A stretch of 32,419 nucleotides of DNA from Lentimicrobiaceae bacterium. Lineage in GTDB: Bacteria; Bacteroidota; Bacteroidia; Bacteroidales; SKPS01. The notes beneath the pieces are model-generated. The model worked only from the letters and a program-made list of their open reading frames with translations. It searched no databases and had not been told where the DNA came from. Shown here one piece after another: positions 20,617 to 31,989 of this stretch. Location of the stretch: positions 1 to 32,419 of the forward strand of contig SKPS01000153.1 in NCBI GenBank assembly GCA_007119395.1, given 5' to 3'. Made by a program: the position numbers and the translations under genes. Numbering within the stretch: the first letter of the stretch is position 1; the number at the start of each line of letters is the position of its first letter.

Positions 20617-22233
20617 TTACATCAGGAAGCTCAGTAGGATACCTGCGGCCACTGCTGAGCCGATCACTCCTGATACATTGGGTGCCATTGCGTGCATCAG
20701 CAGGTGGTTGTTGGGATCGTTCAGAAGCCCTTCATGTTGTACAACCCTTGCGCTGTCGGGTACTGCCGATACGCCGGAGGCACCAATCAATGGGTTGATT
20801 TTGTTCTCCTTGGTCAGGAACAGGTTCATCAATTTGGCAGAGAGGAGGCCTCCGATGGTAGCCACCATAAAGCTAACGGCTCCTAGTACGAAAATCAGCA
20901 CCGACTCTTTGGTGAGGAACACATCGGCCTGTGTTGAAGCACCCACTGTTAGTCCAAGCAAAATGGTAACAATATCCACCATGGCATTTCTGGCTGTTTC
21001 AGCCAATCGACGTGTTACACCACTCTCTTTAAGGATGTTGCCAAAGAAGAGCATGCCCAGAAGTGGCAGTGCACTGGGTGCGATAAAGGTGGTGAGGAAG
21101 AGACCCACAATCGGGAACAGGATTTTCTCCAGTTTCGATACAGAACGTGGTGGTTTCATCCGGATGAGTCGCTCTTTTTTATTTGTCAGCAGTCTCATAA
21201 ACGGAGGCTGAATAACAGGAACAAGCGCCATGTATGAGTAAGCGGCAATCGCAATGGGGCCAATCAGGTTTTTGACGATGATGGGATCACCGGCTGCTGT
21301 ATAACCGATTACATTGATCCCGTTGGCTAGCTTTGAGGAGATAAAAATGGCGGTAGGGCCGTCGGCACCTCCGATAATACCGATAGCAGCAGCCTCAGGT
21401 GGAGCAAACCCCAGATAGAGGGCACCAAGGAACGTAGCGAAGATACCGATTTGTGCGGCCGCTCCCAACAGCATCAATTTGGGATTCGACATCAGCGATG
21501 AGAAGTCGGTCATCGCACCAATACCAAGAAAAATCAACGGGGGATAAATACCTGCTGTTACTCCAAAGTACAGGTAATTCAGCACACTGCCACTTTCGTA
21601 GATACCCAGCTCCAGATTGAACCCTTCGGCCTGGAAAAACGGGATATTCCCCATGATGATCCCTGTTCCGATCGGTATCAACAGCAGCGGTTCGTAATCG
21701 TATTTGATGGCAAGGTAGATAAAGATCAACCCCACAATAAACATAATCAGGTGACCTGGTGTAGCATTGGGGAATCCTGAAAATTCGATAAAGTTCAACA
21801 ATCCGGCAACCGAAGTGGAGTGTCGTTTGTAGACGTCATTACCAATCACCAGGTGTCCATCCTGGTCGACAAATCCACGCTTGGTGGATAGCTCCACCGG
21901 ACCATGCGTTGCAAACTCCAGTACAATAATGTTGTCATCTACCTTCCAGCTACCGATAAATCGTTGTTTGGCAGAATCGAGGGCAAAAGCGCCGTCATCC
22001 TCAAAGAACAGCATTTTGTAGCGTTTCACCGTAGCACTGTCATCAGCACGTAAACGGTAGCCGTCGCTTTTGTTCAGCCATTTCCCCCTTGCAAGGTGAT
22101 CTTTCAATTCTGCTTTCGTTTTCTGCCCCGGAATGGAGGTAGAAATATCCTCCTGCACATAGTTGCCCATAAACAGGGCAGATAGGATGGACAGGAATAT
22201 TATGATCCCGATAAGGGTTGTCAATCTCTTCAT
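20617..22233 (-). CDS. Na+-translocating decarboxylase beta subunit (MmdB/OadB/GcdB family) with extra N-terminal soluble domain
   Basis: Motifs EPLLLIPIG, IFLGIGAMTDF, IGIIGGADGPT, IAAYSYMALVPVIQPP, GVSAVP and HAMAPNVSGVIGS. ATG at 22233 preferred over 22308, which overlaps the upstream gene. Confidence 0.93.
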   Translation of the reverse strand: MKRLTTLIGIIIFLSILSALFMGNYVQEDISTSIPGQKTKAELKDHLARGKWLNKSDGYRLRADDSATVKRYKMLFFEDDGAFALDSAKQRFIGSWKVDDNIIVLEFATHGPVELSTKRGFVDQDGHLVIGNDVYKRHSTSVAGLLNFIEFSGFPNATPGHLIMFIVGLIFIYLAIKYDYEPLLLIPIGTGIIMGNIPFFQAEGFNLELGIYESGSVLNYLYFGVTAGIYPPLIFLGIGAMTDFSSLMSNPKLMLLGAAAQIGIFATFLGALYLGFAPPEAAAIGIIGGADGPTAIFISSKLANGINVIGYTAAGDPIIVKNLIGPIAIAAYSYMALVPVIQPPFMRLLTNKKERLIRMKPPRSVSKLEKILFPIVGLFLTTFIAPSALPLLGMLFFGNILKESGVTRRLAETARNAMVDIVTILLGLTVGASTQADVFLTKESVLIFVLGAVSFMVATIGGLLSAKLMNLFLTKENKINPLIGASGVSAVPDSARVVQHEGLLNDPNNHLLMHAMAPNVSGVIGSAVAAGILLSFLM

Positions 22234-22270
22234 CTGGTGGAAACCTTTCTTGTGCAACACTTCTTTATTC

Positions 22271-22702
22271 TTATTCCATTTCGAGCAAAACTGCTCCCTG
22301 TAATACATTGTCTCCCGCCGAGACCTTGATTGATTTCACAACACCATCTTGTTCAGCCTGGATATTGTTCTCCATTTTCATGGCCTCCATCAGCAAGAGC
22401 TTATCGCCACGTTTCACGGCATCACCGGGTTTGACAAGGATCTGCAAAATGGTACCCGGCAGGGGTGAGGTTACGGGAATGGCTACCCCTCCACCTGCAG
22501 GAGGAGGTGCAGCTTCAGGAGAAGATGGAGCCGCTTTTACAACCGGACGCTTGATCTTAGGGGTTTTGGTGGCAGAGTCCTTGTGTGTTACCTCCACCTT
22601 GAACGGTGTGCCGTTCACCTCTATATCAGCTACATTGTCTGCATATTCCTTGATCTCAACTGCGTATTCAAGTCCGTTTATTACAAATTTATACTGCTTC
22701 AT
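22271..22702 (-). CDS. Biotin carboxyl carrier protein of the decarboxylase
   Basis: Pro/Ala linker, SPLPG and the EAMKMEN biotinylation motif. Confidence 0.95.
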   Translation of the reverse strand: MKQYKFVINGLEYAVEIKEYADNVADIEVNGTPFKVEVTHKDSATKTPKIKRPVVKAAPSSPEAAPPPAGGGVAIPVTSPLPGTILQILVKPGDAVKRGDKLLLMEAMKMENNIQAEQDGVVKSIKVSAGDNVLQGAVLLEME

Positions 22703-22741
22703 ATTGTTTCCGGTTTTTCCTCAAAAAATTTCTTCACTCAT

Positions 22742-23104
22742 TTACCAGTTCTTGCGATTCAGGGTGTTCAAACCGTAAATCTTTGAACTCCACGGGGAGT
22801 AACTCCGGGATACCTTTCTGATGGTAATCACATTGCTCTCTTCGTCGTGTATTTCACTGAAAAAGAGATGTAGCGCCATAGAAATGGCTGCGTTCTCCTC
22901 TCCGCTCACTTGTGTGGGTTCTTTCTGTTGTGACACATCCACCCCCTTTTTCTTCAGCCTGTTACGTGCCTCAATGGAAAGGATTTTGGGGAGGTTGTAG
23001 AACAGGGTTACCAAACTTACCAATACAGTAAATACGATAATATACCCCACAAGCGCAATAGTAATGTGTTCATTGGTAATATGTTCAAAACTTGCCAGGA
23101 TCAT
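22742..23104 (-). CDS. OadG-family (gamma/delta) membrane anchor subunit
   Basis: Single N-terminal TM helix, AAISMAL and HDEES...SPWSSKIY tail; lies in the decarboxylase operon. Confidence 0.85.
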   Translation of the reverse strand: MILASFEHITNEHITIALVGYIIVFTVLVSLVTLFYNLPKILSIEARNRLKKKGVDVSQQKEPTQVSGEENAAISMALHLFFSEIHDEESNVITIRKVSRSYSPWSSKIYGLNTLNRKNW

Positions 23105-23122
23105 AGCTAAACTGTTGATAGA

Positions 23123-24682
23123 TTATAGAGGGATGTTACAATGCTTTCTCGGAGGGTTGGTGTCTTTTTTGGTTGCCAGTGCCTGCAGTGCTCTGATGAC
23201 CCTGAAGCGGGTGTTTCGGGGCTCAATGACATCGTCAATATATCCGAATTTGGCAGCCTCATAAGGGTTGGCAAACTTGTCTTTGTACTCTTGTTCTTTC
23301 TCAGCGATGAATCGTTTTTTCTCCTCTTCATCGGTTATCTCAGCCAACTCTCTACTTCTGAGCACCTCAATGGCACCTTTGGGTCCCATAACTGCAATCT
23401 CAGCAGAAGGCCAAGCATAATTGATGTCACCTCGTAACTGTTTGCTGCTCATTACATCGTGAGCACCACCATATGATTTCCTCAGGGTGATGGTCACCTT
23501 TGGTACCGTTGCCTCACCATAGGCAAACATCAGTTTGGCTCCATGAAGAATGATGCCACCGTACTCCTGTTGGGTGCCGGGAAGGAAACCGGGTACATCT
23601 ACCATCGTGACCAATGGTATATTGAAGGCATCGCAAAATCTTACAAAGCGTGCTGCCTTACGTGATGCATCAATATCTAGCACACCTGCCAGGTAGCTGG
23701 GCTGATTGGCCACAACGCCCACAGGCATTCCATCAAACTTGGCAAAACCAGTTACAATGTTTTTGGCATAATGACGATGCACTTCCAGAAACTCGTTGTC
23801 ATCTACTACAGCGTAGATAATGTCTTTTACGTCGTACGGTTTATTGGGGTCTGAAGGGATAAAATAATTCAGTGAGTCTTCCAGTCTGTCGATGGGGTCG
23901 TTGCACTGTACCATGGGTGGGTCTTCCAGGTTATTGGAAGGCAGGTACGAGAGCAGCTTGCGAATCATCATCAGCCCCTCTTCTTCTGTTTCAGAGATAA
24001 AGTGGCTAACACCTGATTTGGCGGCATGCACATGAGCCCCACCCAGTTCGTCAACCGTAACCACTTCGCCGGTTACTGTTTTCACCACCTTAGGGCCTGT
24101 AACAAACATGTAACTGTTGCGCTCACTCATCAGGATGAAATCAGTAAGGGCAGGTGAGTAAACAGCTCCTCCGGCACATGGGCCGAAGATAGCAGAGATC
24201 TGTGGTATCACACCGGATGCATTGATGTTGCGCTGAAAGATCTCGGCATAACCCGCCAGGCTTTTCACACCTTCCTGGATTCGTGCACCACCACTGTCGT
24301 TCAAACCAATCACCGGAGCACCTACTTTCATGGCCTGGTCCATCACCTTGCAGATCTTTTTGGCATATGCCTCTGACAGGGATCCACCGAAAACAGTGAA
24401 ATCCTGTGAGTAAACATACACAATACGACCATCAATGGTACCATAACCAGTTACTACACCATCAGACAAAATACGTTGCTTTTCCAACCCAAAATCGTGG
24501 GAGGTGTGGGTGACAAACATGTCAAACTCCTCAAAACTTCCTTCGTCTAACAGAATTTCAATACGCTCACGGGCTGTGAGTTTGCCCTTTTTATGCTGTG
24601 ATTCAATTCTGGCTATTCCACCACCGAGCCTCGCTTGCTCGCGCCTCGCCATGAGGTCCTTAATTTTGTCTTCTATCGCCAT
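23123..24682 (-). CDS. mmdA: Methylmalonyl-CoA decarboxylase alpha / acyl-CoA carboxyltransferase subunit
   Basis: Motifs [51 protein letters not shown] and KHCNIPL; lies between the epimerase and the membrane subunits. Confidence 0.9.
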
Positions 24683-24703
24683 TTTGATCAATATCTGTAT
24701 GGG

Positions 24704-25123
24704 TTATTCCTTTACTTTCTTGTCTTCGCAAAACTCAGTCAACACACCAAATGTGCTTTTCGGATGTAAAAAGGCAATATCGAGCCCTTCAGCTCCGCGA
24801 CGGGGCACGGAGTCAATCAGTGAGACCCCATGCTCTTTGGCAGCCTCTAGGCATTGCTCTATCCCTTTCACTGCAAACGCTATATGATGAACTCCCTGGC
24901 CACGCTTCTCGATGAATTTTCCAACCGGACCCTCAGGATCTGTAGACTCAAGCAACTCTATCTTGGTGTCACCCACCTTGAAAAAAGCTGTGCGAACCCG
25001 CTGATCCTTCACCTCTTCAATCGCATAGCAGGTGAGACCCAATACCTTCTCGTAATAGGCTATGGCAGCATCCATGTCCTTTACCGCAATCCCAATGTGT
25101 TCAATGTGCGTTGGCTTCATCAT
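24704..25123 (-). CDS. mce: Methylmalonyl-CoA epimerase
   Basis: VOC-fold motifs HIEHIGIAV, IELLE, GVHHIAF and AFLHPKSTFGVLTE. Confidence 0.95.
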   Translation of the reverse strand: MMKPTHIEHIGIAVKDMDAAIAYYEKVLGLTCYAIEEVKDQRVRTAFFKVGDTKIELLESTDPEGPVGKFIEKRGQGVHHIAFAVKGIEQCLEAAKEHGVSLIDSVPRRGAEGLDIAFLHPKSTFGVLTEFCEDKKVKE

Positions 25124-25300
25124 TTATTATCATTTGGTTTGTTAACACATGTTGCAAAATACCATCAAAACCAACCAGCCCTGTAAAGGGACAATCGGCC
25201 ACCTTATCCTCATGTAACCACAGCAGAGCCTCAACCAAAGGCAGGCCCATAGTAGTTCCTATGAAACGGAGCGGGTGTGTGCAACGGCAAAATTGCGGTG

Positions 25301-25308
25301 CAAAGGTA
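25301..25308 (-). promoter_or_regulatory. -7 promoter box (TACCTTTG) for the mce-mmd operon
   Basis: The + strand CAAAGGTA gives a leader of about 175 nt. Confidence 0.6.
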
Positions 25309-25354
25309 CAACGAAAGAAGTTGATAAAAAAGAATTTTGCAAAAAATCGATTCG

Positions 25355-26065
25355 CTATACAATGGTTTTTACCCTGTTTCTCTCCTGAATGTATTGTTCA
25401 TATTTCCCTTCAAAGCGGATTCTCGCAGCCACTACAGTATCAAACTGTTTCAGGCTGGCAATCAGCAATTCACACACCTCCCTCAGCGCCATATTTCCCC
25501 CTGTAGAGCCGGTGATATAATCAGCCAAACGGTGTTCCAATACATATCGTCTGGTAAGGGGAGCTGCCGGCTGGTTAAAAAACAGCCTCAGCCCGCACCG
25601 CTGAGCCAAGGTGAAATCAATGATGTCATCAAAAAAAAATGCTGTCTCTTCCGGTACCACTGCATGGTCACGTGACAGAACAGAAAGCGCTTCATCCTTA
25701 CGCTTCACACCTGTCATTACCATATTAAAGTGCTCACGGGTTGCAAACTGCTTCGCTGTTTTATTGTCAGCACCCGACACGATCGCAGTAATGGGCATCT
25801 CCCCCTTGTTTTGTAGCCAGATGGCAAAACGGAGCATGTTCACCCCCATTGAGTCAGCCTCCGTGAAGCCACTTCCGTCGAGATGGGTCTTATGGCCATT
25901 GTTGAATACACCGTCCCAGTCGAATACCAAAGCCCTGACACGCGCTAAACGCCCGGCAAATGATGCATACCCCTCAGGAAACTCACCCCCCAACTCTTTG
26001 AAAGGGGTGATGAGCGCGCTGTCAAACCCAGGCTGTTGTTGTGGATCGTGATGCATGTTGTTCAC
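25355..26065 (-). CDS. KdsC-like HAD phosphatase (divergent)
   Basis: HAD motif I FDWDGV, motif II IVSG, K/DD motifs (KRK...FDDIID) and GGNMALREVCELL resembling the KdsC GG.GA.RE tail. GTGA overlap with the upstream gene; alternative ATG at 26056. Confidence 0.8.
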   Translation of the reverse strand: MNNMHHDPQQQPGFDSALITPFKELGGEFPEGYASFAGRLARVRALVFDWDGVFNNGHKTHLDGSGFTEADSMGVNMLRFAIWLQNKGEMPITAIVSGADNKTAKQFATREHFNMVMTGVKRKDEALSVLSRDHAVVPEETAFFFDDIIDFTLAQRCGLRLFFNQPAAPLTRRYVLEHRLADYITGSTGGNMALREVCELLIASLKQFDTVVAARIRFEGKYEQYIQERNRVKTIV

Positions 26066-27084
26066 GGCCTGCCGTTTTTAAAGAGATCATGGATGTCCAT
26101 GATGCCGATTGGCTTACCATCTTTGGTAACCACAATGTTATCGATTTTCTTTTTCCTGAACAACAATGAAGCATTGTGCAGTGACTCCTCTGCATCGATG
26201 CAGACAGGTGTTTTCACGGGCATGGTATCGAGCTTTTTACGAAGAATTCCTTCCCCTTGTTGCTCAAGCATTCTACGCAGGTCTCCATCGGTGAAGATTC
26301 CTATCAGTGCTCCGTTGTCGTCTGTGATGCTGACGGCGCCAAACTGTGAAGTGGTCATAATGACCAGTGCATCCAGGATGGTTTTATGATGGCTTATGGT
26401 GGAGGGTGCATCTGAGATCACCTGGTGAACCTTAAGGGTGATGAGTCTGGTGTGCTCAAAGAACTGCTGTGTGCCAATGTCGGTGAAATGGTTTTTGAAC
26501 AATTGCTTCATCACCTTCCAGGGAATGGTACAGGCATGTACGCCAAGGTTCAATGCGTTGCGAACGTGTTCTGAATGCCTGACGGATGAGAACATAATTT
26601 TCGAAGGATATCGGTACCTGTCGGTGATCTCAACACATTGCCTGATGAGCCCCAGTGCGTCGTGCCCTTCGTCCTGCAATCGGCCTACCAATGGGCACAC
26701 ATAGGTGGCCCCTGCCGACAACGCCATATAGGCCTGCTGAATCGTATAGACTAGATGTACGTTCACCATCAGCCCTTGATCAATCAACTGCCTGCACGCC
26801 TTTATGCCGTCGGTGCTGACAGGGATTTTAAAGACTGTTCGTGACGGGTCGAGGCCCAATCCGATCAAACGATGCGCTTCAGAACAGATCTCCTCAGCAT
26901 CTTCTCCCAGTGCTTCCACCTGCAAAACAGGCACCCTGGTGGAGAGCTGAAGAATGGTGCTGTTGATGTCTGTGATACCATCACGGTGCATAAAAGTTGG
27001 TGTGGTGGTAAGCCCCGCAAGGATGCCCAATGACGCGGCCTCTTCAATCTCTTCAATATTGGCTGAATCAAGGTATAATTCCAT
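26062..27084 (-). CDS. Transaldolase/fructose-6-phosphate-aldolase family barrel fused to a C-terminal KdsD/KpsF-type CBS pair
   Basis: Residues 1-212: MELYLDSA, GLTTTPT, VFKIP (Schiff-base Lys86), AGATYVCPLVGRL, SSVR and CTIP. Residues ~214-340: LIGIFTDGDLRR and GIMDIHDL. Start placed at ATG 27084. Confidence 0.88.
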   Translation of the reverse strand: MELYLDSANIEEIEEAASLGILAGLTTTPTFMHRDGITDINSTILQLSTRVPVLQVEALGEDAEEICSEAHRLIGLGLDPSRTVFKIPVSTDGIKACRQLIDQGLMVNVHLVYTIQQAYMALSAGATYVCPLVGRLQDEGHDALGLIRQCVEITDRYRYPSKIMFSSVRHSEHVRNALNLGVHACTIPWKVMKQLFKNHFTDIGTQQFFEHTRLITLKVHQVISDAPSTISHHKTILDALVIMTTSQFGAVSITDDNGALIGIFTDGDLRRMLEQQGEGILRKKLDTMPVKTPVCIDAEESLHNASLLFRKKKIDNIVVTKDGKPIGIMDIHDLFKNGRP

Positions 27085-27964
27085 GTTCGTTTTTGTATTG
27101 GTTGATCGTGTTATGTATCTCAAGCAGTGGTTTTAAAAACATTTCCAAGTGTTGGGTATGCATTTGGCTTGCTGCATCGCACAACGCTTTGTCTGGTGCT
27201 GTGTGGGTTTCAATGAAAAGTCCGTCAATGCCTGCTGCCACGGCACTTCGTGCCAGTACACTCAAATATTCACGGGAACCGCCGGCTGGGTTGGAGCTTG
27301 GAATTCCATATCGTCTTACTGAATGTGTAACATCAAATACCACCGGGCATCCGGTTCGTTGCAGATGGTAAAAGCTCCGTGGATCAACCACCAGGTCGTT
27401 GTAACCAAAAGAGTAACCTCGCTCGGTTACCAGGATATTTCTGTTCCCTGCAGCCTCCACCTTGGCAACAGGCTTCAACATCTGTTCCGGTGCCAGAAAC
27501 TGACCTCGTTTGATGTTGACGACCTTGTTCGTTGAGGCCACCTTTTCCAATAGCTCGGTCTGCATGCATAGGTAGGCTGGTATTTGCAATACATCCAATA
27601 CAGCTGCCGCCTCATCAACGTGTTCGGGATAGTGCACATCCGATAACACAGGGAAGCCAAAATCGCCTCTGATCCGTTCCAGAATCCGCAACCCTTTTTC
27701 AAGCCCGGGGCCACGGTAGTAATTGGCAACACTGCGGTTGTCTTTGAGGAAAGAGGATTTGAAAATCACAGGTATGTTTAATCTGGCTGAAATACCTGCC
27801 AGTTGCTCAGCTACCTGCATCATAAGAGGCTCCTCTTCAATCACACAAGGGCCTGAAATTAAAAAGAGGGGAGGTGCTCCGCATACCAAGTCACCTATCA
27901 CCACCTGATGCTTTGTGCGTGACAGGTGACGATCGATTGGCCTAAGGTTGTTTTTCGTAGTCAT
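27068..27964 (-). CDS. kdsA: 3-deoxy-8-phosphooctulonate (KDO8P) synthase-like, non-canonical motifs
   Basis: Motifs GPCVIE, RGPG, SDVH, QIPA, GQF, ERG.SFGYNDLVVD, FDVTHSV and GLFIETH..P..ALCD. Start placed at ATG 27964. Confidence 0.85.
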   Translation of the reverse strand: MTTKNNLRPIDRHLSRTKHQVVIGDLVCGAPPLFLISGPCVIEEEPLMMQVAEQLAGISARLNIPVIFKSSFLKDNRSVANYYRGPGLEKGLRILERIRGDFGFPVLSDVHYPEHVDEAAAVLDVLQIPAYLCMQTELLEKVASTNKVVNIKRGQFLAPEQMLKPVAKVEAAGNRNILVTERGYSFGYNDLVVDPRSFYHLQRTGCPVVFDVTHSVRRYGIPSSNPAGGSREYLSVLARSAVAAGIDGLFIETHTAPDKALCDAASQMHTQHLEMFLKPLLEIHNTINQYKNEHGIIP

Positions 27965-27978
27965 ATCTGCATTGCTGG

Positions 27979-29787
27979 TTAAAAACTGATTTCCCAAACT
28001 ACCTCTTCCTCCCAGTTGGCTCGCAAAGAGACGGCACTGGGGATCACCTTCACTTTTTCGGGTTGTATTCTTTTCCAATAGTCACCGGTATCCCACCTGC
28101 CATTGCCATTGCTGTCGAGAATCGCTTTCAGGTAGTACTGTCCGGCAGGCAGGTATGGGAAAGTGATGGCCCCATCCTCAGAGAGGTTGCCACGGGTTAT
28201 CTCATTCATTCTTTCATCTGTGAGCAGCACAATCACTGAGGTTGCCTGCTCACCTTCCAATCCTGAAATCAACGTAAGGGTTCCAAAGTCTTCGCTGCGT
28301 GCCGGTGTAAAATGATAGCGGATGGTATCGTTGTTTGTGCCATCCCAGCCTGTAATCATTCCGGCGGGAATCATCAGGGTATACTCTGTGCCCTGTTCCA
28401 GGGTATTGGTAATTGCGAAGCGTATGGGTACCAGGGAGTCGATCACCTGAAGCTGCAGCGGGATAGTGTCTTCAGAAGTGGAGAGTGTGCTGCTGGTCAG
28501 GTCTATATGGCTCAATGGTGACGAGAAGGTAATGATGGGGTCACGTGCTGGCCTCAAAGAGCCACCGCGAGGCACATTCATCGACAGGGTGGTGGTGGGT
28601 TCCCGTAACCTGGTTCGGCCGGTACCGGTGGGCTGCCGAAGAGCAGTCCGCAGCGTGTCTGCGAAATAGGGTGTGTCAACAATAGCAAGCGGCAATGCTT
28701 CAAAGGTGTGTTGCTGTAACCATACCCACAAGGTGTCACGACCGGGCGTTAATTGCCATAGCATGATGGAGTCGAGACCCGGCTCAGGAGAAAAGATGTC
28801 AGGTTGCTGAACCGGATAACGGAATGCTACATACGCTTTGTTCCTGCCGTCTGATCGCGATGTAACCACTCTTTGGACACTGTCCTCTCCAACGAACATA
28901 CGCAATACAAAAGGTTCAGAATGTGTGGTGACTGTGTCTGTTCCATTTTCTGTGAGCGTATCCAATGTTGATTCATCGGTGGTGATAACAGCCGAGAGTG
29001 TATCGGAGAGCCCGGCGTTGCTCAAGGTGTCAGGATCGTCCGGTGGAGGCGACGGCATCCGCCATGGTCTCACAGGCTCGCTGTGAAAGGCCACCCCTTC
29101 GGTGAGGAGGTCGTAACGCATGTTGTTGTTCAGGTCAGCCAAGGCAAACAAATGATACAGCGTGTCAGCAATGTGTTGAAATTCAAAATGGCCGTTTTGG
29201 TCAGGGCGCGTAACATACCGCGGCTTCTCCAGGGCCACGGCTGAATCGCTCATGGGGAGCTTGTAGAGCATCACCAGGATGTTCTCTTCAACCTCCTGAT
29301 CCCACGCATTGAACACCCTCCCTTTAATGGTGTGCTGATCGATCTGCGGACCGGTTGAAAAGTAATAGGTATATGGTGGCAGCGGGTTCCCTTCGGTGAT
29401 GTCTTTGATGGCATCACCAAAGAAAAAGGCATAGGTTGCATTGGAGATTAAAGTGTCATGGAACCTGATGGTAAGATTTCTGCCACGAAGTCTTATCTCT
29501 ACCGGATTAGCAAGAGGTGGTGAAACGAGGAGCTGTTGCTGCAGGTTTCCGGTTTGAATGAACTCACTAAAGCGCAATGTAAAGCTGTTCTCTGTGAAAT
29601 CGACACCACCGGAGGGGGGTGTCTCCAGGATCACTTCCGGCGGAGTGGTATCACGCGGGCCACCCGTGGGAGATACAATGTTAGCACAACCGGCAGTCAA
29701 CAATGCAAGCAGATAGATGATCCCCCTTTTCGGCACGGCCGAAGTGATCTTGTGTCGCAGGTTCTGCATTATACAAAGTTCTTTCAT
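27979..29787 (-). CDS. Lipoprotein with Ig-like (Big_5/SbsA-like) domains
   Basis: Lipobox LTAG-C followed by ANIVSPTGGPRDTTPP and FSEFI; DxNxN-type loops; C-terminal ANWE. Confidence 0.8.
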   Translation of the reverse strand: MKELCIMQNLRHKITSAVPKRGIIYLLALLTAGCANIVSPTGGPRDTTPPEVILETPPSGGVDFTENSFTLRFSEFIQTGNLQQQLLVSPPLANPVEIRLRGRNLTIRFHDTLISNATYAFFFGDAIKDITEGNPLPPYTYYFSTGPQIDQHTIKGRVFNAWDQEVEENILVMLYKLPMSDSAVALEKPRYVTRPDQNGHFEFQHIADTLYHLFALADLNNNMRYDLLTEGVAFHSEPVRPWRMPSPPPDDPDTLSNAGLSDTLSAVITTDESTLDTLTENGTDTVTTHSEPFVLRMFVGEDSVQRVVTSRSDGRNKAYVAFRYPVQQPDIFSPEPGLDSIMLWQLTPGRDTLWVWLQQHTFEALPLAIVDTPYFADTLRTALRQPTGTGRTRLREPTTTLSMNVPRGGSLRPARDPIITFSSPLSHIDLTSSTLSTSEDTIPLQLQVIDSLVPIRFAITNTLEQGTEYTLMIPAGMITGWDGTNNDTIRYHFTPARSEDFGTLTLISGLEGEQATSVIVLLTDERMNEITRGNLSEDGAITFPYLPAGQYYLKAILDSNGNGRWDTGDYWKRIQPEKVKVIPSAVSLRANWEEEVVWEISF

Positions 29788-31010
29788 AGTTTGAATTCTA
29801 CTACATCAGGTGACAACCGTCGTACCGGCAGCCAGGCAGCCAGCAAACCAATGGTCATCACCGAGAAAAATATCAGCACAAAATCAGCCCAATGAATCTT
29901 TACGGGATAAGTATCGAAAACCAGGGTATCCGCTACCCCAATGCCAATGAGACCAAACTGTTGCTGTATCCAGGCCAGCAACCCTCCGATAAAAAGGCCC
30001 GTGACAACACCCACGAAAGAGATCTGTAGCCCCTCGAGTAAAAAGATTCTGCGGATGATGCGGTTGCTGGCTCCCATTGCCTGCAAAATGGCGATGTCTT
30101 TCTTTTTCTCCAGAATCAGCATTGTAAGAGACCCGACAACGTTGAAGATGGCCAGTAACAGAATAAAAGAGAGGATGGCAAAGATCGCCCATTTCTCTGA
30201 TCGTATGATTCTGTATAAAAGCTCCTGTTGCTCAAACCGGTCTTGAATCACATATTTCTCTCCCATCAATTGCTGCAACTGCTCTTTGATTCGACGTGTT
30301 GATGCGTTGGGCTTCAGGCCGAGTTCCAGTGAAGTGATTTCGTTGTCGTATGCCATCAGGTCACGCATAAGGTCTATGGGTACCAAAACATACCGGTTGT
30401 CGATCTCTTGTTGCACGGAAAACACCCCTGATGGCCACATCTCTCTGGTGGTGAAAGCCGAAAGTCTGTCGCCGGGTGAAGCAAACCGGTTGGCCATGTA
30501 CACCTCTACGGGGTGTTCAGCCACATCGATGATGGCACCCAGCCTGAAAGCAACACCCGATCCAAAGACTGCACGCGGCATCCTTCCGGGTGCCACCACA
30601 AAGTTGCCCGCATAGACCATGGTGTCCAACCCTGTCATCTCATCGTAATAACCGCTAACACCTTTTAGTGTTGCCAAATGCTGCTTTTCACGGAAACGCA
30701 ATAAAGCGTTCTCTTCGATCACCTCATGGTAATGAACAATCCCTTCCACACCTCTGATCTCCTGAGCCATATATTCGTCGATCTCAAAGGTCTTCCCTTC
30801 AGCAGCCGTAACCCTGATGTCAGGGTGAAAAGCATTGAACAGAGAAAGCACCACCCCTTCAAATCCATTAAAAACAGACAATACCAAAATAAACGCCATG
30901 CTGCCACCCATCACCCCAATGGCCGAAATCGCAGAAATCAGGTTGATGGCATTGTGCTTCTTTTTTGAAAGGAGGTAACGCCTGGCTATATATAATGGAA
31001 AGAGATTCAT
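29784..31010 (-). CDS. LolC/E-like (FtsX/MacB family) ABC transporter permease
   Basis: Motifs IARRYL, VLSVFNGF, large periplasmic domain, EKKKDIAILQAMGA...IRRIFLLEG and YPV; ATGA overlap with rbfA. Confidence 0.88.
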   Translation of the reverse strand: MNLFPLYIARRYLLSKKKHNAINLISAISAIGVMGGSMAFILVLSVFNGFEGVVLSLFNAFHPDIRVTAAEGKTFEIDEYMAQEIRGVEGIVHYHEVIEENALLRFREKQHLATLKGVSGYYDEMTGLDTMVYAGNFVVAPGRMPRAVFGSGVAFRLGAIIDVAEHPVEVYMANRFASPGDRLSAFTTREMWPSGVFSVQQEIDNRYVLVPIDLMRDLMAYDNEITSLELGLKPNASTRRIKEQLQQLMGEKYVIQDRFEQQELLYRIIRSEKWAIFAILSFILLLAIFNVVGSLTMLILEKKKDIAILQAMGASNRIIRRIFLLEGLQISFVGVVTGLFIGGLLAWIQQQFGLIGIGVADTLVFDTYPVKIHWADFVLIFFSVMTIGLLAAWLPVRRLSPDVVEFKL

Positions 31011-31348
31011 TCCTGCAATAACCGGTCAATGTTGTCGATATAGTCCAATGAATCATCTTCATAAAACTCTAACGCAGGAATCACCCTTAACTGATGTCGC
31101 ATGGCACGCCCCAGTTGAAACCGGATTTCACCCCCCTTTTCACGGATCTTCTCCACCAATAACGATTTGTCAGTTGTGCCAAATATACTCAGGTACACTC
31201 TGGCTATCTGCAAATCTTTCGTAATGCGTACTCCGGTTACCGTAACCAAAGCACCACTCCCCCAGATACCCTGACCCTCGCGCTGAAACAGCTCTCCCAT
31301 CTCCTTCTGTATCTGCTTTGAAACACGTTGTTGTCTGACAGAATCCAT
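31007..31348 (-). CDS. rbfA: Ribosome-binding factor A
   Basis: Motifs RQQRVSKQIQKE, VTVTGVRITKDLQIARVYLS and LRVIPALEFYEDDSL. ATG 31348 chosen because the promoter box lies downstream of ATG 31393. Confidence 0.95.
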   Translation of the reverse strand: MDSVRQQRVSKQIQKEMGELFQREGQGIWGSGALVTVTGVRITKDLQIARVYLSIFGTTDKSLLVEKIREKGGEIRFQLGRAMRHQLRVIPALEFYEDDSLDYIDNIDRLLQE

Positions 31349-31376
31349 CGTTGTGCATTTATCGGTTGTGATGTGG

Positions 31377-31405
31377 CAAAGATAACGTTTCATCCGTTAC
31401 CTTTG
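31377..31405. promoter_or_regulatory. Back-to-back divergent -7 boxes: TATCTTTG (minus, 31377-31384, rbfA operon) and TACCTTTG (plus, 31398-31405)
   Basis: Two perfect TAnnTTTG matches 13 nt apart on opposite strands. Confidence 0.65.
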
Positions 31406-31509
31406 CCGAACTGTTTTATAAATGTGTTTGTTATACATTCACACCGTTATTAACATCCAGCGGTTTTTATTCACAGTGTATATTGTATCTATAACAAAAA
31501 CAAATTGTT

Positions 31510-31989
31510 ATGCCAAGGCATATCCAATGCAATACCCCAACACCTGACCCGCGTATGGTCACCTTTGTTCGTGAGCACCATGTGATGACCCTCGCTACCA
31601 CCGATGCATCGATGACCCCATGGTGCGCATCGTGCTTTTATGTGTATATGCCCAAAACAAACCAATTCGTCTTTACCACAGATGAAGAGACACGCCATGG
31701 CCGACAGATGATCGACAATCCGGTAGTAGGTGCATGTATCGCTTTGGAAACCAATATTACAGGCAAAATTCGGGGGGTCCAAATCACCGGTGTGGTAAAA
31801 AAAGCCACAGGCAAAGAACACTTCAGGGCCTCTTTGGCTTTCCTTAGAAAATTTCCGATCGCAGCCCTGAAAAAAACCACCCTGTGGATCCTCGAACCAC
31901 ACCATATTAAAATGACCGATAACCGGCTTGGTTTCGGAGTAAAACTGCTGTGGGACCAACCTGTATCATCGGACAGTAGCACAACATAG
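31510..31989 (+). CDS. Pyridoxamine 5'-phosphate oxidase-like / YhbP (UPF0306) family protein
   Basis: Motifs HHVMTLAT, PWCASCFY, TRH, IRGVQITG and IKMTDNRLGFGVKL.W. Confidence 0.85.
   Translation: MPRHIQCNTPTPDPRMVTFVREHHVMTLATTDASMTPWCASCFYVYMPKTNQFVFTTDEETRHGRQMIDNPVVGACIALETNITGKIRGVQITGVVKKATGKEHFRASLAFLRKFPIAALKKTTLWILEPHHIKMTDNRLGFGVKLLWDQPVSSDSSTT

Follow-up and report, generated by a model that had tools for sequence, protein, structure and literature searches.

Contig SKPS01000153.1 of Lentimicrobiaceae bacterium (assembly GCA_007119395.1; Bacteroidota, Bacteroidales), whose full 32,419 nucleotides (nt) are here called the window, carries three genes on its minus strand that together appear to form a cassette for synthesis of Kdo (3-deoxy-D-manno-octulosonate). 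Kdo is needed for the lipopolysaccharide (LPS) of nearly all Gram-negative bacteria, and to our knowledge KdsD, KdsA, KdsC and KdsB have been treated as its universal four-step route and as antibiotic targets. The cassette opens with kdsA (27068..27964, from ATG at 27964 to TGA at 27068; 298 aa), for Kdo-8-phosphate synthase (KDO8PS). Next comes a gene for a 340-aa fusion protein, TAL-CBS (26062..27084, ATG 27084 to TGA 26062), in which a barrel of the transaldolase (TAL)/fructose-6-phosphate aldolase (FSA) fold (residues 1–215; 26440..27084) precedes a pair of CBS domains like that of KdsD, KpsF and GutQ (residues ∼225–338; 26071..26412). The third gene (25355..26065, GTG 26065 to TAG 25355; 233–236 aa) encodes a divergent HAD phosphatase of the KdsC/YrbI lineage.

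A preliminary description of the locus had reported three overlapping, co-directional minus-strand genes, and the open reading frame (ORF) list and the sequence bear this out: the TAL-CBS start overlaps the kdsA end by the 17 nt that had been claimed (27084-27068). The GTGA overlap reported between the fusion and HAD genes exists if HAD starts at GTG 26065, but disappears with the alternative ATG at 26056 (233 aa). Pfam finds DAHP_synth_1 in kdsA, and TAL_FSA plus two CBS domains in the fusion; the HAD gene has no Pfam match.

The fusion belongs to a conserved, unnamed family. All 120 of its best relatives in a collection of 5.8 billion proteins have the TAL+CBS architecture, at 61–86% identity, and carry no more specific names than ‘transaldolase family protein’ or ‘CBS domain-containing protein’. 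Relatives were found in at least 579 species-level genomes, mostly of Bacteroidota, in a scan using one genome per species. The best 80 loci come from Cytophagales, Chitinophagales, Saprospiraceae, Flavobacteriales and Bacteroidales, and also from metagenome-assembled genomes (MAGs) of Desulfobacterales/Desulfobacteraceae and one SAR324 MAG. Carriers include the cultured Thermoflexibacter ruber, Thermonema rossianum and Rapidithrix thailandica, and Chitinophagaceae bacterium LGM1, whose genome is complete. Searches of the open literature in PubMed Central and bioRxiv yielded no description of a transaldolase-CBS protein in Kdo synthesis, or of any replacement of KdsD. The barrel is rarely met without its tail: when it was used alone as query, 116 of the 120 best matches carried the CBS pair. 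The idea that the variant barrel is commonly CBS-less was rejected on this count, the four remaining matches all being short proteins (one on a 668-bp contig, one marked partial and two of 268–269 aa).

Gene linkage was counted over the best 80 fusion loci, 67 of which have adequate flank on both sides. Among these 67, 49 hold kdsA, fusion and HAD, 10 fusion and HAD only, two kdsA and fusion only, and six neither neighbour; the fusion directly follows kdsA in 51 and is directly followed by HAD in 59. The preliminary description had made its reading depend on conservation of gene order in relatives, and since the order kdsA/TAL-CBS/HAD recurs in 49/67 loci of different orders and phyla, the arrangement is not due to chance. 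Clustering of neighbouring ORFs over all 80 loci finds HAD at 67, KdsA at 54, KdsB at 17 (downstream of HAD or upstream of kdsA) and a WaaA-like Kdo transferase at seven, these last being Desulfobacterales-type loci; it finds no further widespread partner beyond HAD, KdsA and KdsB. One genome (G195) has kdsA, TAL-CBS, HAD and kdsB in a row, and the fullest forms of the module read waaA-kdsB-kdsA-fusion-HAD. Such a module covers the whole path from the synthesis to the transfer of CMP-Kdo, the fusion standing where the step forming D-arabinose-5-phosphate (A5P) belongs. In KdsD-type genomes from other classes of the phylum the order is kdsA, kdsD (SIS+CBS) and lpt-like genes in 6/6; the fusion occupies the kdsD slot.

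A gene of the Fe-dependent alcohol dehydrogenase family or one for a DegT/LegC-type aminotransferase adjoins the cassette in nine of the 80 loci each (for example L099:2010-3086 and L129:368-1573). The two resemble the pair KdnB and KdnA of Shewanella, which we take to turn Kdo into 8-amino-Kdo.

The distribution of the fusion is complementary to that of KdsD. We sampled the phylum evenly with 401 genomes, scoring KDO8PS at E ≤ 1e-50 and the KdsD/KpsF type at E ≤ 1e-25, and compared presence and absence sets by hand from three genome tables and per-family tallies. KDO8PS was found in 296 genomes, the KdsD/KpsF type in 288 and the full-length fusion in six, including the window's own genome. 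The 296 KdsA-positive genomes comprise 286 with KdsD, six with the fusion and no KdsD, and four with neither, while among the 105 KdsA-negative genomes the fusion occurs in none and a KpsF-like gene in two. The kpsF model is matched over its cut-off in 280 of the 288 genomes; the Bacteroides thetaiotaomicron control falls below the cut-off, at ∼1e-45, and is still detected. The five complete fusion genomes (G195, G267, G311, G371 and G125) match this model in its CBS part only, even at E ≤ 1e-3. The two types can alternate within a genus: in g41, G183 and G347 have KdsD, and G195 and G267 the fusion. In the window's own genome no KdsD-type SIS protein was found, only GlmS and a GmhA-like SIS protein beside heptose-pathway genes.

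The pattern holds in wider samples. Fifty further fusion genomes, drawn from the 80 loci, include 47 with no KdsD-type match, among them T. rossianum, T. ruber, R. thailandica and Chitinophagaceae bacterium LGM1. For an independent replicate in a second phylum we turned to the order of G443; this MAG bears the label Deltaproteobacteria, and its cassette KdsA clusters with those of Desulfobacterales MAGs. Here the fusion is found in 3/61 genomes and KdsD in 49/61, with KdsD in none of the three fusion genomes versus 49 of the 58 others. Altogether KdsD is absent from 54 of 57 fusion genomes examined. The co-occurrence of the fusion with absence of a SIS-CBS KdsD, proposed as a check in the preliminary description, is thus seen in the six genomes of the phylum sample, in 47/50 further genomes and in 3/3 of the second order. 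The rest of the pathway is in place in fusion genomes, KdsB scoring over its cut-off in 5/5 and the WaaA N-terminal domain being found in 4/5, where the miss is the incomplete MAG. G195, G267, G311, G371 and G125 have one KDO8PS match each at E ≤ 1e-50, and in all but G371, whose cassette kdsA does not adjoin the fusion, this single match sits in the cassette.

The gene context and this phyletic pattern make it probable, in our estimation, that the fusion supplies A5P in place of KdsD. The preliminary description had proposed a co-evolved cassette that either draws A5P from a new source to make Kdo, or makes a different ulosonate; a co-evolved cassette is supported, and the first branch is favoured because kdsB and waaA-like genes join the cassette in some genomes and because in four of the five other fusion genomes of the phylum sample it holds the single KDO8PS match.

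Several points weigh against this reading. The fusion and KdsD are not strictly exclusive, since three of the 50 further genomes (G420, G435 and G437) carry both, and six of the 67 well-flanked loci have the fusion without kdsA or HAD. Absences in the window's own genome are weak because that MAG is only 86.4% complete; more generally, related genomes are not independent and MAG incompleteness weakens single absences, a concern mostly answered by the complete genomes and by the replicate in a second order. Four complete KdsA-positive genomes have neither KdsD nor the fusion (G079, G151 and G283 of family f12 and G077 of f38; loci L147, L148 and L178-L181); relaxing the threshold to E ≤ 1e-3 revealed no SIS protein of KdsD type in them. 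There must therefore be another A5P source in the phylum, which could in principle serve fusion genomes too. A CBS-less version of the variant barrel was considered as that source and rejected, the TALs of these four genomes having the canonical N28, T110, S130 and F132; the kdsA neighbourhood of G079 gave no clue to it.

The barrel scores 121 bits with Pfam TAL_FSA (gathering threshold 27) and falls below the equivalog cut-off of fsa_talC_mipB, TIGR00875 (170.9 < 245.95). An AF2 model of the fusion, built from 27 family members, has pLDDT 88.1, and with Foldseek its barrel matches the solved transaldolase TM0295 and those of Thermus thermophilus and Thermoplasma acidophilum at TM 0.88–0.94. 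Residue numbers coincide with those of the T. acidophilum enzyme. We compared 85 fusion barrels with 24 plain TALs of the same phylum. Asp6, Glu57, Lys86 and Asn108, with the phosphate-binding Arg135, Ser167 and Arg169, are kept in 85/85 fusions. Thr28, His110 and Leu132 are likewise found in 85/85, versus Asn, Thr and Phe in 24/24 plain TALs; the full set of family-invariant changes is N28T, S55Q, T110H, F113Y, F132L and D137Q. Position 130 is Cys in 27/27 aligned fusions and Ser in the aligned solved transaldolases. PDB titles for the T. acidophilum enzyme point to Lys86, E60 and F132 as catalytic positions under study (‘Lys86Ala’, ‘E60Q/F132Y’), and the title ‘FSA Q59E’ goes with E. coli FSA, which has Gln59 at the Glu position. 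Asn28, Thr110, Ser130 and position 132 presumably have catalytic roles in transaldolases. By these residues the Schiff-base machinery is intact, while the donor-binding half of the site has changed.

Could the barrel be a dead one that binds a sugar phosphate, so that the fusion catalyses nothing and only senses or regulates the Kdo pathway, with nucleotide bound at its CBS pair? CBS pairs are regulatory modules and several canonical catalytic-site positions are changed, yet the Schiff-base and phosphate-site residues are invariant, and the barrel is more conserved (70–88% identity among top matches) than the whole protein (61–86%). Since invariant catalytic residues and this excess conservation fit an enzyme under strong selection, we regard a sensor as highly improbable.

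The fusion might instead be a CBS-regulated transaldolase or fructose-6-phosphate aldolase of central carbon metabolism, located by chance in an envelope operon, with A5P coming from an unrecognised isomerase elsewhere. The TAL_FSA score well above threshold, the retained Schiff-base residues and the public name ‘transaldolase family protein’ speak for this, as do the failure to find a plain TAL in the window's own genome and the four KdsA-positive genomes that manage without KdsD or fusion. Against it stand the sub-cut-off fsa/talC score, the substitutions N28T, T110H and F132L that are invariant in fusions and occur in 0/24 plain TALs, and the plain TAL that three fusion genomes (G125, G195 and G371) carry as well. 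For these three reasons the barrel is, as far as residues and scores tell, not a housekeeping transaldolase. Tight linkage to kdsA, HAD and kdsB, the absence of KdsD from 54/57 fusion genomes and a CBS pair of KdsD type also count against a central-metabolic role. So do seven complete genomes of the window's order (G031, G075, G119, G127, G231, G243 and G299), in which no transaldolase-family match was found at E ≤ 1e-10; TAL is therefore not a housekeeping need in that order. We rate a central-metabolic fusion as quite unlikely. In five of the seven, as in the B. thetaiotaomicron control, the match to the kpsF model gets no further than ∼1e-45, a value consistent with a single-SIS isomerase; the genome that holds the window departs from its order in both TAL presence and kpsF match.

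The CBS tail has the kpsF, KdsD and GutQ models, through their C-terminal parts, as its best CBS-containing NCBIfam matches, and the CBS pairs of arabinose-5-phosphate isomerases 4o9k, 3fna and 3k2v as its best solved CBS-only matches. It is also the best match in its own genome to the CBS part of the kpsF model. That model is matched only at positions 154–267, its CBS part, and Pfam finds no SIS domain in the fusion. The transaldolase-family barrel with KdsD-type CBS tail that had been read from the sequence is thus corroborated.

The cassette KdsA passes two KDO8PS equivalog cut-offs (NF003543, 341.8 > 242; TIGR01362, 328.8 > 314) and misses that of a third model, NF009109 (257.1 < 457); its best solved relative is 6mdy, at 275.6 bits. 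It is 53–67% identical to other cassette KdsAs versus 42–49% to those of fusion-free genomes, although the latter come from the same phylum and some from the same genera. A quick IQ-TREE maximum-likelihood tree, with SH-aLRT support only, places 59 cassette KdsAs and 28 others on opposite sides of a branch of length 0.9 (SH-aLRT 100); L133, L175 and L007 have long branches. By these measures the window's KdsA is a variant member of the KDO8PS family within a clade of its own, not an outlier. The ‘variant KdsA’ of the preliminary description therefore stands as to altered motifs, but with two equivalog cut-offs exceeded the protein is still a family member. In the same quick tree the Desulfobacterales KdsAs nest inside the Bacteroidota cassette clade, which suggests that the whole module was horizontally transferred to Desulfobacterales, where it is found with kdsB and waaA attached. 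Cassettes outside Bacteroidota comprise the Desulfobacterales-type MAG loci L102, L105, L106, L107, L116, L118 and L122, the SAR324 locus L133 and L088 from a ‘Proteobacteria’ MAG.

Thirteen near-fixed columns distinguish the 59 cassette KdsAs from the 28 others. The cassette form reads KDNRS in 59/59 where the others read KANRS in 28/28, the N-R-S part being kept, and has Met134 in 59/59 where the Arg of FLCRQT stands in 28/28. Further differences are Tyr131 for Phe, His153 for Lys, Cys262 for Ser and, in the loop after the metal-type His214, Arg217, Tyr219, a one-residue insertion (Ile221), Asp225 and Arg231. All of 32 cassette KdsAs compared keep Cys40, His214, Glu252 and Asp263, the Cys/His/Glu/Asp set that supplies the metal ligands in the Aquifex aeolicus enzyme. 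KANRS and the FLCRQT Arg we assume, from the A. aeolicus and E. coli enzymes, to belong to the sugar-phosphate site, and several of the changed positions presumably line the A5P site. The cassette KdsAs thus appear to have co-evolved with the fusion and to have had this site rebuilt. The Transaldolase+CBS architecture, whose association with KDNRS-type KdsA the preliminary description offered for checking, turns out to be widespread and linked to a distinct KdsA clade, with KDNRS in 59/59. A predicted complex of TAL-CBS with KdsA scored 0.00 and was run without controls, so it is not evidence either way.

The window's genome also holds a second KdsA-like gene (C329:4554-5252, minus strand; locus L156), which scores 199.7 bits against a cut-off of 314 and runs off the contig at its N-terminal end. 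Either the 2.4% contamination of the MAG or a paralogue serving another ulosonate could explain it. A search of this genome for a second canonical kdsA or kdsD, also called for in the preliminary description, thus returned no KdsD and only this sub-threshold KdsA-like paralogue.

The HAD protein falls well short of the KdsC cut-offs (NF007019, 53 < 208; TIGR01670, 41.6 < 106.95). Among solved structures it scores best with phosphatases of the KdsC/YrbI type, some of them deposited as hypothetical proteins, and E. coli KdsC (2r8e) reaches 41 bits; the three weakest solved matches are chains of KDN9P-phosphatase type deposited as ‘Acylneuraminate cytidylyltransferase’. In an alignment with E. 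coli KdsC it retains the motifs DxDGV (as DWDGV) and DDxxD (as DDIID) and lines up over the C-terminal GGxxAxRE segment, but has GAD for GRK; there is an N-terminal extension of ∼40 aa. Its relatives are named ‘KDO 8-P phosphatase’ by JGI and occur also in MAGs of Thiotrichaceae, other Gammaproteobacteria and Nitrospiraceae. The HAD is the cassette's probable Kdo-8-phosphate phosphatase, an assignment less secure than that of the fusion. It is not forced, and this too weighs against the overall reading, because canonical-type KdsC is present in the window's own genome and in 21/50 fusion genomes. It is absent from the other 29, and from three of five genomes when the window's genome was tested with four complete fusion genomes. 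The earlier view that all three enzymes depart from their family motifs is upheld by comparison for KdsA and the TAL barrel, and for HAD has behind it the sub-threshold scores and one pairwise alignment.

The two canonical KdsC-family genes of the window's genome lie on contigs C177 and C180 (C180:1065-1586). The former scores 142.9 bits, has a ∼70-aa N-terminal extension resembling a helix-turn-helix, and lies directly downstream of a type I-beta DAHP-synthase-like gene of 331 aa with 121 bits to the KdsA model (locus L157, C177:1914-3614 on the minus strand for the two genes).

With KANRS changed and the FLCRQT Arg lost, the cassette KdsA could have a substrate other than plain A5P, a further point against our reading. 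The TAL barrel might then build an unusual aldose phosphate that KdsA condenses with phosphoenolpyruvate (PEP) and HAD dephosphorylates, the outcome being either an altered 3-deoxy-ulosonate or Kdo reached through a modified intermediate. This would account for the changes shared by all 59 cassette KdsAs (KDNRS, Met for the FLCRQT Arg, Arg217, Arg231 and the loop insertion), the distance of HAD from the KdsC cut-offs and its GAD in place of GRK, the canonical KdsC co-existing in 21/50 fusion genomes, and the DegT-type aminotransferase and Fe-dependent alcohol dehydrogenase genes beside nine of 80 cassettes. It fits poorly with a KdsA above two KDO8PS equivalog cut-offs that retains the N-R-S part of the motif and all of Cys40, His214, Glu252 and Asp263, and with five fusion genomes having one KDO8PS each, in the cassette in four, and ordinary KdsB and WaaA. 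We consider a substrate other than A5P unlikely.

The fusion as A5P supplier would imply the following sequence of events. The SIS catalytic domain of KdsD would have been replaced by a class I, Schiff-base barrel of the transaldolase fold, with the KdsD-type CBS pair, presumably regulatory, and the gene position downstream of kdsA retained. TAL-CBS would then supply A5P as its putative product, the cassette KdsA would condense A5P with PEP to Kdo-8-phosphate, the divergent KdsC-like HAD would remove the phosphate, and Kdo would be activated and transferred by KdsB and WaaA, whose genes lie elsewhere or, in other genomes, join the cassette. Inherited and horizontally transferred as a unit, the module would bring its own KdsA lineage and displace KdsD.

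For the first step two chemistries can be envisaged, and retained aldol chemistry is mildly favoured over isomerisation on the residues present. A5P has the D-arabino configuration of fructose-6-phosphate and differs from it by lacking C1, so the Lys86 imine would form at C1 of A5P, and the C2–C3 bond would be made or broken between a C2 glycolaldehyde unit and glyceraldehyde-3-phosphate. Such a reaction has a precedent: in one published account, E. coli FsaA is used as an ‘arabinose 5-phosphate aldolase’ with glycolaldehyde and glyceraldehyde-3-phosphate (PMC9947464). The preference for aldol chemistry follows from the intact Schiff-base residues, the likeness of A5P to fructose-6-phosphate and this formation of A5P by FSA. 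Its main weakness is the need for a C2 unit, free glycolaldehyde being physiologically not obvious; in addition the FSA-type Tyr is absent, position 132 being Leu. In the isomerase variant, the barrel would have been recruited to interconvert ribulose-5-phosphate and A5P as an aldose-ketose isomerase, through Glu57 and the new His110 (and Lys86). That Kdo synthesis here starts with a class I aldolase-type assembly of A5P at C2–C3, controlled by the CBS pair and feeding a KdsA with a rebuilt site, is accordingly offered as a tentative proposal that may well prove wrong. Such an entry could join a C2 unit to glyceraldehyde-3-phosphate, or could epimerise another pentose phosphate by retro-aldol and aldol steps.

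Among known systems, the fusion shares with KdsD/KpsF/GutQ (SIS + CBS pair) the place downstream of kdsA, the C-terminal CBS pair and the probable role of A5P supplier. It has no SIS domain, however, and has for its catalytic domain a TIM barrel of the transaldolase fold that carries a Schiff-base lysine; the fusion is therefore not a member of the KdsD family, and its chemistry need not be isomerisation. With the short (type 3B) transaldolases and E. coli FSA (PF00923) the barrel shares its fold, at 33–42% identity, together with Asp6, Glu57, Lys86, Asn108 and the phosphate site. It has neither the transaldolase Phe nor the FSA Tyr at position 132, and the fusion differs from these enzymes by its CBS pair and its linkage to Kdo rather than pentose-phosphate genes; we place it, on present comparisons, as an atypical member of the transaldolase/FSA superfamily. 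Another remodelling of KdsD in the same phylum is seen in the API of Bacteroides fragilis and the isomerase of B. thetaiotaomicron, which we take to be single-SIS arabinose-5-phosphate isomerases: these kept SIS and lost CBS, whereas the fusion kept the CBS pair and lost the SIS domain. The cassette HAD shares DxDGV, DDxxD and the GGxxAxRE segment with KdsC/YrbI (C0-type HAD), from which it differs by sub-threshold scores, the N-terminal extension and GAD for GRK.

What appears new is thus an otherwise known pathway whose first enzyme is non-homologous and whose synthase has co-evolved, with only generic public names for the fusion. If the fusion does supply A5P, hundreds of Bacteroidota and some Desulfobacterales have a non-homologous first Kdo enzyme, and an annotation gap is filled in genomes seemingly without an A5P source, where the gene is named only ‘transaldolase family protein’. 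The transaldolase fold would gain a new physiological role, in a domain-level displacement that retains a regulatory module, the KdsD CBS pair, on a new catalytic domain. The KdsA lineage of its own and the transfer to another phylum would make the cassette a clear example of a pathway whose genes move together. Metabolic engineers, who already make A5P with FSA, might find here a natural, optimised A5P-forming enzyme. Should the aldolase entry prove true, it would open a new biosynthetic way into the LPS core and give FSA-like glycolaldehyde chemistry its first natural role in anabolism.

Upstream of the cassette, Pfam identifies a Big_5 lipoprotein and a LolE-like FtsX permease, agreeing with two parts of the rbfA-lolE-lipoprotein run described previously; the ‘rbfA’ ORF (31489-31959) has no Pfam match. 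In a promoter and terminator scan of 24900-31400, counts equalled those in shuffles and are uninformative; Bacteroidota promoters are not of the sigma-70 type.

Elsewhere in the phylum, 105 of 401 genomes are without KDO8PS, and all but two of these also lack KdsD; most of those listed are 99–100% complete, and whole families are affected. Examples are G003 and G008 (f22), G013 and G040 (f27), G018 (f30), G023 (f31), and G028, G032 and G044 (f32); the five such genomes checked all gave DAHP-synthase-level matches only, or none. These lineages may make no Kdo.

Downstream of the cassette in the window, a methylmalonyl-CoA epimerase gene is followed by a set for a Na+-pumping decarboxylase (20617-25123, minus strand), comprising carboxyltransferase, OAD gamma-like, biotin carrier and OAD beta. 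The OAD beta ORF is 563 aa long and the Pfam model spans only residues 186–562, leaving an N-terminal extension of ∼185 residues.

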